Source: a virus. Taken from it: DNA of 24,060 nucleotides. The notes beneath the pieces were generated by a model that did no database searches, was not told the DNA's origin, and saw only the letters and a program-made list of their open reading frames with translations. This document shows positions 18,596 to 23,411 of this stretch, in pieces. How positions within the stretch are numbered: position 1 is the first letter of the stretch; each line of letters starts with the position of its first letter. Location of the stretch: positions 1-24,060 of the IMG/VR virus record IMGVR_UViG_3300033074_001684. One strand, 5' to 3'. The translations under genes and the position numbers were made by a program.

Positions 18596-18807
18596 GCATA
18601 CCAACTTTCACCACACTTGCCACAGCAATAATTTGTTCCTTTGTCTGTCTCACGTGTGCGAATAGACTTTCCACTCTTTTTGCATTTCGGACACCGGGCT
18701 GTTTTCTCAGCCGTGTCGGGATACTTCTGTTCAAAAACCGTCATGCAGTCTCCCACTCGATGATAAACTTTACCATCGTCTTCGGCATAAGGACTAACAT
18801 CAAACAT
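18586..18807 (-). CDS. 73-aa zinc-ribbon protein (CPKC...CGKC)
   Basis: First ATG lies 4 nt downstream of the 3' CCA of tRNA-Ser(GGA). The TGA stop lies inside the 5' acceptor stem of tRNA-Ser(CGA). The Cys pairs are typical of a zinc ribbon. Confidence 0.45.
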   Translation of the reverse strand: MFDVSPYAEDDGKVYHRVGDCMTVFEQKYPDTAEKTARCPKCKKSGKSIRTRETDKGTNYCCGKCGESWYAED

Positions 18808-18811
18808 AATT

Positions 18812-18903
18812 TGGCGGAAGATGAGAGATTTGAACTCCCGCACGCCTTACAGCGTGACCTCCGACTTCCAATCGGGTGCAATACCGGACTCTGCCAATCT
18901 TCC
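18812..18903 (-). tRNA. tRNA-Ser(GGA), class II
   Basis: Reverse complement GGAAGAT TG GCA..GG..TGC A CCCGA TTGGAAG TCGGA, a long variable arm, then GGGAG TTCAAAT CTCTC ATCTTCC G CCA. Confidence 0.8.
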
Positions 18904-19080
18904 ATGTAACTTTTTAGGGACAACAATCATCATGCCATTCAAAAACGTCTTCAATCGAAACGTACAATGCAACGTGTTTCCTTCAAACCATTGTAACAGC
19001 AACCAACGGCCATCGCCAAGTGTAGAATGAACAGTCTTTTTCCGCCCATCTATGTCAATAACTACGTCTCCAATTTTCAT
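18847..19080 (-). CDS. hypothetical 77-aa protein whose 3' 57 nt overlap tRNA-Ser(GGA)
   Basis: ATG overlaps the stop of the methyltransferase gene as ATGA. The ORF continues into the tRNA gene before reaching a stop. Confidence 0.4.
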   Translation of the reverse strand: MKIGDVVIDIDGRKKTVHSTLGDGRWLLLQWFEGNTLHCTFRLKTFLNGMMIVVPKKLHGRLAESGIAPDWKSEVTL

Positions 19081-19865
19081 GTATACGACTTCTGAATCTC
19101 TTCAAACATTGCCTTTCCGTTTGGTCCAAACATAGGAACTGCAAGCCCCATATAGCTAGCATAATTCGCAAACGTGTTCATTGCCCGTTTCCAATTTTTC
19201 GGATTGTAAATTGGGCACTCCAGCTTTTGCCACATGAAGTATCCAATCGTCCGACATACATCATCCCACGAAGGTGCGCCAGGAACGGGAACAGTGTCTA
19301 CTTCAAACATGAAAATCGGACCCGCTTCTTTGAACGTTTCCTGCGCACCATTCACCATAAAGATTTCCATACCTTCAATGTCTGCCTTGATGAACTGTGG
19401 GCGCAATCCAAAACTGTCCAATGTGCGCATTTCAACTTCAACTTCGCCATCGGTTCCAAGACTCATCTGTGTGCTTCCTGGACTACACAAAGCATCATTC
19501 GGGGTGAATGTAATCATTCGATTTTCGTGGCCCAACGCATACGGCAAAACTTCAACGTTGGTGATGCCGTTCAACTCCAGATTCTTTTCCAGGATGCCAC
19601 GGATTTCCGGCTGCGGCTCGAATGCATAAACCTTTTTGACTATCTTAGAAATCGGGATGGTCATGTCACCGATGTAGGCACCAGCCTCTACCACTTCGAT
19701 CCCATCCGGGTAAAGCGATTCCAAGATCTTGAACGTATTTCGCATCACGTCCATTTCACTCTCGCTCCATTCTCCTAACTCACGAAGAGAACGAGACACC
19801 CACGGGTCATCGTCAATCGTATGCATCTGCCCGTACCGGGTCTGAAAAATCCTTGTTGTAAACAT
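19077..19865 (-). CDS. SAM-dependent methyltransferase, FkbM family
   Basis: 262 aa. The VVEAGAYIGDMT glycine-rich SAM motif and overall FkbM-like layout are present. Confidence 0.7.
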   Translation of the reverse strand: MFTTRIFQTRYGQMHTIDDDPWVSRSLRELGEWSESEMDVMRNTFKILESLYPDGIEVVEAGAYIGDMTIPISKIVKKVYAFEPQPEIRGILEKNLELNGITNVEVLPYALGHENRMITFTPNDALCSPGSTQMSLGTDGEVEVEMRTLDSFGLRPQFIKADIEGMEIFMVNGAQETFKEAGPIFMFEVDTVPVPGAPSWDDVCRTIGYFMWQKLECPIYNPKNWKRAMNTFANYASYMGLAVPMFGPNGKAMFEEIQKSYT

Positions 19866-19877
19866 AATTTCAAATTT

Positions 19878-19967
19878 TGGCGGAAGGTGAGGGATTTGAA
19901 CCCCCGCATCCTTTCGGATGGCCTCAATTTAGCAAACTGGCACAATACCAAGCTCTGTCAACCTTCC
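19878..19967 (-). tRNA. tRNA-Ser(GCU), class II
   Basis: Reverse complement GGAAGGT TG ACA..GG..TGT G CCAGT TTGCTAA ATTGA, a long variable arm, then GGGGG TTCAAAT CCCTC ACCTTCC G CCA. Confidence 0.75.
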
Positions 19968-19974
19968 GTTTCCT

Positions 19975-20187
19975 TTACACATCCGTCCGCTTGCGATGGC
20001 CCAAGAAGTCACGCTCATGATCTTGTATGTAGTCTTCGCTCTGGCGATGCGATCCAACCTCAACCACTTTCCAGCCGTCTTCATCACGAATACGCAGATA
20101 CTTATCCTGATTCGCAAACTGCTCTGGAATCCAAGCTACTTGTCTTTCCGTGTTCCTACAGAGCACGCATTGTCTGTAATACGTCAT
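19975..20187 (-). CDS. hypothetical 70-aa protein
   Basis: GGAGAA 6 nt upstream of the ATG. The stop lies 7 nt before the tRNA-Ser(GCU) 5' end. Confidence 0.55.
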   Translation of the reverse strand: MTYYRQCVLCRNTERQVAWIPEQFANQDKYLRIRDEDGWKVVEVGSHRQSEDYIQDHERDFLGHRKRTDV

Positions 20188-21979: not shown

Positions 21980-22067
21980 TGGTAGCCGGGGAGAGACTTG
22001 AACTCTCACGCCCCGAAGGGCACCAGATTTTGAGTCTGGCGTGTCTGCCAATTCCATCCACCCGGCC
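21980..22067 (-). tRNA. tRNA-Leu(CAA), class II
   Basis: Reverse complement GGCCGGG TG ..GG.. CCAGA CTCAAAA TCTGG, a long variable arm, then GAGAG TTCAAGT CTCTC CCCGGCT A CCA. Discriminator A. Confidence 0.85.
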
Positions 22068-22073
22068 AAAACT

Positions 22074-22271
22074 TTATTCCCCCTCGTTCCACGGAATATG
22101 GTCACGTGGAAACGTAACTTTCTTTGGATTTACAGCCCAAAGCCGTCTTTGAAACTTCTTTGAAAATAGGATGTCTTCAAACCGTACCTTCTTCTGATTT
22201 TCATCCGGCAACGCTCCACACATCGTACAGCGTCTCGATTCAAAATCGGTTTGGCATTCCCTACACTTCAT
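22074..22271 (-). CDS. zinc-ribbon 65-aa protein (CRECQ...CTMCG)
   Basis: GAGG 6 nt upstream of ATG 22271. The stop lies 6 nt before the tRNA-Leu(CAA) 5' end. Confidence 0.5.
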   Translation of the reverse strand: MKCRECQTDFESRRCTMCGALPDENQKKVRFEDILFSKKFQRRLWAVNPKKVTFPRDHIPWNEGE

Positions 22272-22443
22272 CTTCATCCTCGATTGCCATCACAATAGTT
22301 TCCAGTCGCTCTCTCATCTTCGAGCCTTCTGCAAACTCCAAGCATGAAAACTGTTCGTGCCCACAACCAACAAAGGTGAAGCTAACATCAGAAACATTAC
22401 CTATCGGATCTCTATCAACTGTGATAGTGCGTATTTTCATCAT
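22261..22443 (-). CDS. hypothetical 60-aa protein
   Basis: ATGA-coupled to the upstream gene. Confidence 0.45.
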   Translation of the reverse strand: MMKIRTITVDRDPIGNVSDVSFTFVGCGHEQFSCLEFAEGSKMRERLETIVMAIEDEDEV

Positions 22444-22673
22444 GGCAAGTTCGTCTCAATATCCGCCCAACACCCAGAGCAACGAGCATACAGATCACCA
22501 TATCTGTGCATCATTTCTCTCTTGCAGTCGCAACAGTACCAACGAAATTCACAAGCATTCACATCGCTGCCGTCAAAACAAGTGCATTCACCAGTGGATG
22601 GCGGATGAAACGCTGCTTTTGCTCGTTTCTTTTGTTTTCGTGATATAAACGCTGGTTGCTCGTTAATTCTCAT
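22440..22673 (-). CDS. Cys-rich 77-aa protein (CTCFDG..CEFRWYCCDCK..CSGC)
   Basis: ATG 22673 lies 6 nt after the CCA of the chimeric tRNA-like element. The upstream part of the track ORF is tRNA sequence. Confidence 0.5.
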   Translation of the reverse strand: MRINEQPAFISRKQKKRAKAAFHPPSTGECTCFDGSDVNACEFRWYCCDCKREMMHRYGDLYARCSGCWADIETNLP

Positions 22674-23046
22674 AAAACTTGGTAGCCCCGGAGGGACTTG
22701 AACCCCCGCTACCCTCATCAGGTAGGCCACCGTTTTCGAGACGGGCACATTGCCGCTCTGTCAATCCTCTACACTGAAAAATCCTAACTCCGCACCAGCG
22801 ACCGCTAGAGTCATTGCAACTGACATCACGAAGACGCCATCTAAGTGTGCATGAACATGTTGTATAAGCCACATCCAAATGACAATGTAAATCAAACTTG
22901 CCTTCCCAATAACCGTTATGCACAAAGAAGGAAATCAACTCTTCATTCGGCGTTCCTCTTGGGCTACAGAACAAATCAACTTTTCCATTCGTTCCCAATG
23001 CAAAGAACGGTGCCGTCCACTCTTGTGACACAGATGTAAACGTCAT
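22663..23046 (-). CDS. hypothetical 127-aa Cys-containing protein whose last ~108 nt run through the chimeric tRNA-like element
   Basis: ATG 23046 overlaps the stop of the KOW-Cys paralog B as ATGA. The ORF does not stop until after the tRNA-like sequence. Confidence 0.4.
   Translation of the reverse strand: MTFTSVSQEWTAPFFALGTNGKVDLFCSPRGTPNEELISFFVHNGYWEGKFDLHCHLDVAYTTCSCTLRWRLRDVSCNDSSGRWCGVRIFQCRGLTERQCARLENGGLPDEGSGGSSPSGATKFYEN
22680..22770 (-). pseudogene. chimeric tRNA-like element: 5' two-thirds match tRNA-Ser(CGA) and the 3' acceptor strand matches the type-I tRNAs; the acceptor stem cannot pair
   Basis: The first ~24 nt are identical to the 18595 tRNA-Ser. The anticodon arm CCGT-CTCGAAA-ACGG carries a compensatory A-T to T-A swap relative to CCGA/TCGG. 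The T-arm is GGGGG TTCAAGT CCCTC. The 3' end CGGGGCTACCA pairs only 2/7 with the 5' AGAGGAT. Confidence 0.6.
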
Positions 23047-23327
23047 TTCACTCCACACTCACCAGAACAAGCGTGCGGCCACGAGGGACACAACTTACCC
23101 TCTTTCACAAGAGCCTGCTGCCGCTTGCGTCGGGTCTCGCCAGTAGTAATCTGCGATTCATCTCGACCCTTATACGCCAAGTCGTCTTTGTCAAACCAGC
23201 GCTCATACGGCAAGCCGGGGATCTGAACTATTACTTTGCTTCCATCCACACCAGTGACAACGCCAATCTGACCTTGATGCTTTCCAGTATCGATTTCAAC
23301 CTTGTCACCCTTCTTTGGATTCCTCAT
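23043..23327 (-). CDS. KOW-like / Cys-motif small protein, paralog B (94 aa)
   Basis: MRNPKKGDKVEIDTGKHQGQIGVVTG...CPSWPHACSGECG. ATG lies 7 nt after the CCA of tRNA 23335-23411. Confidence 0.6.
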   Translation of the reverse strand: MRNPKKGDKVEIDTGKHQGQIGVVTGVDGSKVIVQIPGLPYERWFDKDDLAYKGRDESQITTGETRRKRQQALVKEGKLCPSWPHACSGECGVK

Positions 23328-23334
23328 AATGATC

Positions 23335-23411
23335 TGGTAGCCCCGGTGGGAGTCGAACCCACACTGGACGGGATTTGAATCCGTTCTCTCTGCCAATTGG
23401 AGTACAGAGCT
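23335..23411 (-). tRNA. type-I tRNA with anticodon CAA (Leu-type, discriminator A), 4-bp anticodon stem with an A-C closing mismatch; atypical
   Basis: Reverse complement AGCTCTG TA CTC..GG..GAG A ACGGA TTCAAAT CCCGT CCAGT GTGGG TTCGACT CCCAC CGGGGCT A CCA. It is a paralog of the 21647 tRNA. Confidence 0.6.

Follow-up and report, generated by a model that had tools for sequence, protein, structure and literature searches.

Start codons a few nucleotides past tRNA 3' ends in the tRNA array of a T4-like phage: a tentative case for tRNA-punctuated expression

How is a protein gene expressed when its start codon lies only a few nucleotides (nt) past the encoded CCA end of a tRNA gene? This question is raised by the tRNA array in a 24,060-nt stretch of viral DNA (IMG/VR record IMGVR_UViG_3300033074_001684, positions 1 to 24,060; hereafter the window), where tRNA genes are interspersed with small open reading frames (ORFs), four of which open with an ATG 4–7 nt past a CCA end. 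We describe these junctions, their counterparts in related phages and the RNAs that precede them, and weigh a tentative model in which short-leader messages would be produced by tRNA 3' processing.

The four junctions and their start codons

All four junctions, first described in an earlier note, are present as reported there, on the minus strand. At junction 1, tRNA-Ser(gga) (18812..18903, CCA at 18814-18812) is followed by the 4-nt spacer aatt and the ATG at 18807-18805, from which a Zn-ribbon ORF (18586..18807) is open. At junction 2, the 7-nt spacer aagtttt (21973..21979) separates tRNA-Leu(caa) (21980..22067) from the ATG at 21972-21970 of a Cys/His-rich ORF of 84 amino acids (aa; 21718..21972). 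Junction 3 joins a tRNA-like element with an encoded CCA (22680..22770) through agtttt (6 nt, 22674..22679) to the ATG at 22673-22671 of a Cys-rich ORF of 77 aa (22440..22673). At junction 4, a 78-nt tRNA (23335..23412, encoded CCA at 23337-23335) is followed by gatcatt (7 nt, 23328..23334) and the ATG at 23327-23325 of copy 1 of a gene for a KOW-domain protein (KOW1, 94 aa, 23043..23327). The statement that none of them has a Shine-Dalgarno (SD) sequence was borne out, with no SD motif at -18 to -4 of any of the four and no canonical SD 5–10 nt upstream of ATG 21972, 22673, 23327 or 18807. We also rejected the possibility that the tRNA 3' end conceals an SD, as the only candidates are G-runs in the 3' strand of the acceptor stem, which are at least 12 nt away and base-paired.

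Whether the four ATGs are functional starts, as the earlier note implied, was answered differently from case to case. By comparison of N-termini, ATG 23327 is the true start of KOW1, whose orthologs all align from Met1 with the motif MRNPxKG. The same kind of evidence identifies ATG 21972 as the true start of the 84-aa ORF, which shares the N-terminus MYKxKYSG with homologs of other phages; there the homologs overlap an upstream ORF and have no tRNA in front. The JGI gene caller had placed the start of this ORF at Met16. ATG 22673 is probably a start as well, judging from its family, whose members begin 4 nt (contig L001) and 6 nt (contig L008) past tRNA-Leu(tag). ATG 18807, on the other hand, is probably not functional, and alignments point to the ATG at 18744-18742 (Met22) instead. 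All five database homologs of the Zn-ribbon ORF (51–59 aa) begin at the position of Met22 of the window, as do the orthologs in L001, L004 and L006, and an SD, GGGAG (18754-18750), lies 5 nt upstream of ATG 18744.

Two further tRNA-to-ORF junctions of the window have longer spacers. Past tRNA-Ser(gct) (19878..19967), a 12-nt SD-less spacer, aaatttgaaatt, leads to ATG 19865 of an FkbM-type methyltransferase gene (19077-19865) with the conserved N-terminus MFTTRIF. Past tRNA-Leu(taa) (21647..21727), the 18-nt spacer holds the SD-like AAGAAGGG, followed by copy 2 of the KOW gene (KOW2, 21323-21628, start at 21628).

Recurrence of the junctions in related phages

The window is a piece of the genome of an uncultured T4-like myovirus, with gp6-, gp5- and wedge-like baseplate genes. 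A megablast search with the region returned no DNA-level match to cultured phages, and among cultured phages those of Pelagibacter, Methylophilales and Caulobacter come closest by gp6, at 36–40% identity. Homology to the KOW protein and to further ORFs of the array brought up related contigs, which have synteny in common, including the order Pro-Leu-Ser-(MVP, RF-1)-Gly. Scans of viral contigs with the protein resembling the major vault protein (MVP) and with the KOW alignment each returned one contig, identical in both. Because one related contig measures 399,930 bp, the clade is one of jumbo phages. An exact pattern of a tRNA 3' half was rejected as a contig probe, since it matched only unrelated tRNA-Arg loci on two viral contigs, L002 and L003.

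In the window and eight related contigs, an ATG lies at an offset of 3–9 nt past the CCA in 35 of 86 tRNAs, against an expectation of 13.9% (binomial P = 9e-10; orthologous junctions are not independent in this count). With two more contigs added, 33 junctions at 3–9 nt open ORFs of at least 40 aa, with 1, 6, 4, 11, 6, 3 and 2 of them at spacer lengths of 3, 4, 5, 6, 7, 8 and 9 nt, respectively. Beyond this peak at 6 nt, a flat tail of 40 junctions extends over 10–60 nt, so that the short class makes up 33 of 73 spacers. The CCA-spacer-ATG geometry recurs in at least 12 related contigs. The first-scored 28 ORF-opening junctions (27 distinct ones, one phage having been sampled on two contigs) lead to at least 19 unrelated protein families, which argues for repeated independent outcomes and not for one inherited junction. 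Only ATG was scored, so all 33 starts are ATG by definition; GTG or TTG codons at 9 nt or less lie on a following tRNA or tRNA-like element, or beside a longer ATG ORF.

The spacers are composed of 54% T, 31% A, 12% G and 3% C and typically run from one to three purines into a stretch of U, 24 of 33 starting with A and 26 of 33 ending in TT directly before the ATG. They match 18 tRNA-tRNA spacers in length and composition, and a similar stretch, typically a stop codon plus agtttt, connects an ORF to the next tRNA. AGTTTT is not enriched across the window (20 seen, 21 expected) and is notable only beside tRNA ends. The RNase E consensus is RN|WUU, and a motif of this kind is present in 20 of the 33 spacers. 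U also stands before the 5' ends of the tRNAs. Both features are compatible with mRNA ends made by RNase P and a 3' tRNA endonuclease.

The 3' ends of the ORFs are also close to tRNAs, such that protein genes are directly flanked by tRNAs on both their 3' and 5' sides. ORF stops fall 3–10 nt short of the next tRNA, lie on its first base, or occupy its positions 8–10. The last holds for the TAG of the 84-aa ORF (21720-21718) and the TGA of the Zn-ribbon ORF (18588-18586). Stops inside tRNAs are also present in L001, L004 and L005, and the window ORF 18847-19080 extends 57 nt into tRNA-Ser(gga) (18847-18903). Because these stops sit inside the next tRNA, cleavage by RNase P would detach the stop codon from the ORF in several cases.

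The RNAs upstream of the start codons

The element before ATG 22673 carries the CCA and spacer that the earlier note described, but it is not an intact tRNA. Its first 44 nt match tRNA-Ser(cga) of the window at 41 positions, and tRNA-Leu(tag) is an exact match to its last 28 nt, which comprise the T arm, the 3' acceptor strand and the CCA. Pairing of the acceptor stem is impossible, and the Rfam score is 24 bits against a threshold of 29. By these alignments, 22680-22770 is a Ser/Leu chimera and a non-functional tRNA remnant, which marks a crossover within near-identical T arms. A crossover at this site accounts for the fact that the ORF that follows tRNA-Leu(tag) in relatives sits behind a remnant here. 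On the evidence of the chimera, tRNA genes of this clade serve as recombination joints for ORF cassettes.

The 78-nt tRNA at junction 4 has a class-I shape, the anticodon CAA, discriminator A73 and a 5-nt variable loop. It is kept in all relatives (for example, L004 9406-9483 and L005 3663-3740) and shows compensatory changes in 10 of 18 pairs across 10 genomes; because of these changes we take the tRNA to be genuine and the ORFs that read through it to be artefacts. It coexists with the normal, long-arm tRNA-Leu(caa).

Upstream of it lies a third kind of RNA, a tRNA-like element of approximately 95 nt without CCA (GAGTCAGGGTAGTTTAAC...GGTTCGATGGTCCGCTCCTGGCTCA, 23528..23622, minus strand). 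It has the acceptor GAGTCAG/CTGGCTC, is followed by ACA-aatttt-ATG (23518), and is conserved among relatives (L004 9301, L005 3567, L008 3068, L009 6109, L012 4194 and L021 3546). Its anticodon-like loop holds ATT(G), and ARAGORN reports Asn(att) or Asn(gtt) in some relatives, with 'Asn(att)' in L005 and L008. The element recalls the stable tRNA-like RNAs of T4 and T5.

Translation signals and promoter boxes

None of the 13 called tRNA-adjacent genes has an SD motif. In the whole gene set, SD tetramers at -12 to -5 are enriched 3.5-fold, from which it follows that some genes of the clade do use an SD. The tRNA-adjacent ORFs have three features of leaderless-type messages, namely an AUG, no SD and an accessible 5' coding region. 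Over their first 30 nt, structure is weaker than around internal ATGs (P = 4.5e-4), and there is no significant difference in 5' structure between tRNA-adjacent starts, starts adjacent to the promoter box described below and other starts.

The earlier note had likened the junctions to leaderless promoters of this phage. A T4-late-like box (TATAAATA, ATAAGTA, ATAGATA or TAAATA) indeed ends 5–6 nt before the ATG in approximately 17 of 155 genes and is nearly absent elsewhere within 60 nt upstream, with many sites across contigs L004-L012. The T4 late promoter box occupies approximately -13 to -6. Given this position, a box ending 5–6 nt before the ATG would make transcription begin at the A of the ATG or at a neighboring position. 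Two genes of the window have this arrangement, with starts at 7108 and 8784 (boxes at 7115-7120 and 8788-8794, minus strand), and a perfect TATAAATA at 13839-13846 (minus strand) lies 9 nt before tRNA-Gly(tcc). The parallel with the junctions is thus real as far as the box is concerned, and is imperfect in spacing, which is tight at 5–6 nt for the promoters and ranges over 3–9 nt for the tRNAs.

Individual gene families alternate between the two contexts from one genome to another. A family of 96-aa proteins lies 7 nt past a tRNA in L005, behind ATAAGTA-N6 in L009 and behind ATAGATA-N6 in L004. The KOW gene has a tRNA 7–9 nt in front of it in the window, L008 and L020-L023; in other genomes it comes after an ORF.

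All related contigs used carry the KOW family (22 proteins in the search), in each case within the tRNA array. The proteins are approximately 100 aa long with a C-terminal CPSxPHxCxGEC, one source names them 'ribosomal protein L24', and the two copies of the window have diverged. As for the boxes, TATAAATA is in places centred in perfect inverted repeats of 6–10 bp, such as GCATACGCAG-tgtgTATAAATAac-CTGCGTATGC, with the start codon in or just past the right arm (L004 ~6690-6725, L012 ~2165-2200, L026 ~3310-3345, L001 ~2575-2610 and L021 ~6345-6370). These sites may be operators or cruciform-type promoters.

A tentative model and its alternatives

Because neither a promoter nor an SD fits into a spacer of 3–9 nt, the downstream ORF should be transcribed through the tRNA. 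Because everything 3' of the CCA must go, maturation of the tRNA would leave a downstream RNA that starts no more than 9 nt before the AUG, and the claim that the message starts within a few nucleotides of its ATG after tRNA maturation is to this extent secured by geometry. On these grounds we lean, with somewhat less than even confidence, toward a tRNA-punctuated operon in which tRNA 3' processing yields short-leader messages for SD-independent, 5'-end-proximal initiation. In this scheme, an endonuclease would cut in the spacer, either an enzyme of the RNase E type in the purine/U-run or one of the RNase Z/BN type after the CCA, and the tRNA would then be trimmed exonucleolytically. The released message would carry a 5' monophosphate and approximately 0–5 mostly U residues before the AUG, and would be read by leaderless-type initiation, the same mode that the late-promoter box 5–6 nt before starts implies. 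Recombination in conserved tRNA genes would shuffle ORF cassettes while the CCA-spacer-ATG junction is retained.

Several observations weigh against this reading. Two of the four original cases fit it poorly, since a dead tRNA remnant precedes ATG 22673 and the Zn-ribbon gene probably starts at Met22 and not at ATG 18807. The spacer composition is accounted for by tRNA processing alone, being the same between tRNAs. The absence of an SD is not special to the junctions: among the other genes, an SD-like tetramer is present in only ~38% and ~60% have no SD, and a general SD-independent mode could serve the junction genes without processing. Stop codons that would be lost on processing at the next tRNA suggest that translation may take place before processing. 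Spacers of 3–9 nt next to a rigid box spacing of 5–6 nt are odd for a single end-dependent pathway. In Caulobacter reporters, moreover, leaderless initiation falls with leader length i (in nt) as 0.45 x i^-0.91, roughly by half for each nucleotide added, so that a 4–7-nt leader leaves approximately 8–13% of leaderless activity (PMC8459731). The general reliance on leaderless initiation that the earlier note suggested therefore has the geometry, the parallel with the clade's box and the families that switch contexts in its favor, and the ordinary lack of SDs and the cost of short leaders in Caulobacter against it.

The most serious alternative is compaction without any processing-dependent mechanism, with internal, SD-independent initiation of the kind that the hosts would use on most messages. 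Here the 30S subunit, for example via S1, would load on the unstructured ACCA and U-rich spacer whether or not the tRNA is removed, the 3–9 nt would represent the minimum tRNA trailer, and the ORFs would have been placed by cassette exchange in tRNA genes, for which the chimera documents recombination within tRNAs. Genes of the clade are tightly packed in general, with 44 of 84 ORF-to-ORF junctions overlapping (mostly as ATGA). The scarcity of SDs among the other genes, the likeness of post-tRNA spacers whether a tRNA or an ORF comes next, and the low structure common to all start classes fit this explanation, and the single-stranded stretch before the AUG, 7–13 nt long when the discriminator and CCA are counted with the spacer, would fall approximately at the place of the SD helix. 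Compaction has difficulty, however, with the stable tRNA fold 7–13 nt upstream of the AUG, which is within the usual 30S footprint, and with the fact that mature phage tRNAs need cleavage at this very spot, so that the unprocessed form would be short-lived. The box-N5-6-ATG geometry shows end-proximal AUGs in use, and T5, which is equally compact around its tRNAs, retains 13–34 nt with an SD. We consider compaction alone rather unlikely, if well worth keeping in mind. More doubtful is a fully mitochondria-like regime with tRNA punctuation on both sides and non-stop messages, in which the KOW proteins and the GGQ-less RF-1 proteins would act as dedicated translation or rescue factors, or a variant in which an uncleaved tRNA, its acceptor helix at the place of the SD helix, would serve as a ribosome landing pad.

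Two other explanations fared worse. Ribosomes on an upstream ORF that traverses the tRNA might terminate on or beside the ATG and then initiate again. ORF 22663-23046 does traverse the chimera and stops 11 nt past ATG 22673, a frame from ATG 23518 is open through the short tRNA with a TGA that overlaps ATG 23327 (ATGA), and at least one frame is open across the tRNA at 32 of 33 junctions. The ATGA overlap is nevertheless found at only 8 of 33 junctions, approximately as expected by chance, given that roughly one frame in two is open and that an A comes after the ATG in about one ORF in two. Outside the part encoded by the tRNA, the read-through peptides are without homologs. Substitutions in the short tRNA compensate one another within base pairs, unlike those of coding sequence, and ribosomes are unlikely to translate through a folded tRNA in the course of its excision. 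Given the chance-level overlaps and the covariation of the short tRNA as an RNA, we rejected coupling as a general explanation and hold it to be very improbable overall; it is plausible only at ATG 22673, where the tRNA is dead. The remaining explanation, that the ATGs are not functional starts because the ORFs are mis-called, begin downstream or are unexpressed, draws on the homologs at junction 1, which all start at the SD-preceded ATG 21 codons further on, and on the caller's choice of Met16 at junction 2. N-termini are conserved from Met1, however, in the KOW protein, the 84-aa ORF, the methyltransferase and several pairs from relatives, the KOW gene is present in every relative, and tRNA-adjacent ATGs have the low structure typical of starts. 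Conservation refutes this explanation for junctions 2 and 4, and as a general account it is the least credible of all.

Organization of the array and its surroundings

Between 13.6 and 24 kb, the minus strand encodes every tRNA and gene. Upstream of the array, the best match to a sigma-70-like promoter, and the only strong one, is TAGACA-16-TATAAT at 23908..23935 (minus strand, 11/12), and no late-type box at start-codon spacing is present inside 18400-23900. tRNA-Leu(tag) (23628..23713) has an ORF stop, TAG 23720-23718, and tttt in front, and tRNA-Leu(caa) is likewise preceded by TAA and agtttt. tRNA-Ser(cga) (18505..18595) is the final array element before the MVP-like gene. Directly after it lies a GC hairpin (18482-18499). 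On the minus (coding) strand an A-run comes before the hairpin, which would thus be terminator-like only for the opposite strand, on which no gene converges there.

The MVP-like gene (15726-18245, minus strand) encodes an 839-aa protein with a major-vault-protein shoulder and repeat domains, whose homologs in the phage database are only those of the uncultured 462-735 kb phages LR756500, LR756501 and LR756503 (37–38% identity). Between this gene and the tRNA-Gly pair lies a gene for an RF-1-domain protein (15117-15491, minus strand, Pfam PF00472), which has GGGGK in place of the catalytic GGQ both in the window and in L005 (12631-12993).

Comparison with known systems

If the model is correct, the array would be the equivalent, in a virus of bacteria, of mitochondrial tRNA punctuation and a natural source of leaderless-type mRNAs made by RNA cleavage instead of transcription initiation, with a single nucleolytic event linking phage tRNA production and protein expression. 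A gene that occurs in three settings, behind an SD, with its start against a promoter or with its start against a tRNA, would be a natural substrate for determining how well 5'-end-dependent initiation tolerates short leaders. The array also shows tRNA genes at work as recombination joints, by which ORF cassettes move between phages. Gene calling in tRNA-rich phages would be affected as well, as callers ran ORFs into tRNAs or skipped them (the 84-aa ORF and L005). In a non-exhaustive search of the literature on tRNA punctuation, leaderless mRNAs and phages, we found no description of a phage arrangement of this kind.

The nearest analogue is found in animal mitochondria, where transcripts are divided by tRNA punctuation, in the model of Ojala, Montoya and Attardi, and the resulting mRNAs are leaderless. 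As in mitochondria, ORFs and tRNAs of the phage abut on one strand with zero to few nucleotides between them, no promoter or SD separates the genes, the mRNA ends would be defined by tRNA excision (here judged from the geometry), and some ORFs lack an intact independent stop codon. Unlike in mitochondria, the phage tRNAs encode their CCA, a U-rich spacer of 3–9 nt is retained, and the layout is limited to the tRNA array of a ~400-kb phage genome. The phage stops, furthermore, are complete and lie inside the next tRNA, and are not made up by polyadenylation.

Maturation of mRNA by tRNA-processing nucleases has precedents in the thrU-tyrU-glyT-thrT-tufB operon of E. coli and in the t-elements of plant mitochondria. 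The tufB message, however, has a long leader with an SD, and t-elements belong to organelles with factors of their own, so that neither offers a 3–9-nt leader in a bacterium or phage. The messages proposed here resemble bacterial and archaeal leaderless mRNAs (for example, those of Caulobacter; PMC8459731, PMC4117421) in their AUG, lack of an SD and weak 5' structure, and the clade's promoter boxes are placed for transcription start at or next to the AUG, as for such mRNAs. They would differ in the origin of the end, because classical leaderless mRNAs owe it to transcription initiation and carry a 5' triphosphate, whereas cleavage would leave a 5' monophosphate. They would probably also retain a few U residues, which lowers leaderless initiation in tested systems.

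The array itself belongs to the general class of phage tRNA arrays interspersed with ORFs, to which those of T5 and T4 also belong. Here as there, a large lytic phage has tRNA genes, stable tRNA-like RNAs and small ORFs (HNH genes among them) in one orientation, the tRNA 5' ends are abutted or overlapped by ORF ends, and trailers start with AAUU or AGUU. The 5' sides of the ORFs are where they part. In T4, the sole tRNA-to-ORF spacer, from tRNA-Ile to segB, is 41 nt long, and in T5 all such spacers measure 13–34 nt and hold a clear canonical SD, whereas 33 of 73 in this clade are 3–9 nt long and have none. The departure of this clade from the arrays of T4 and T5 is that the SD-bearing spacer has been dispensed with.

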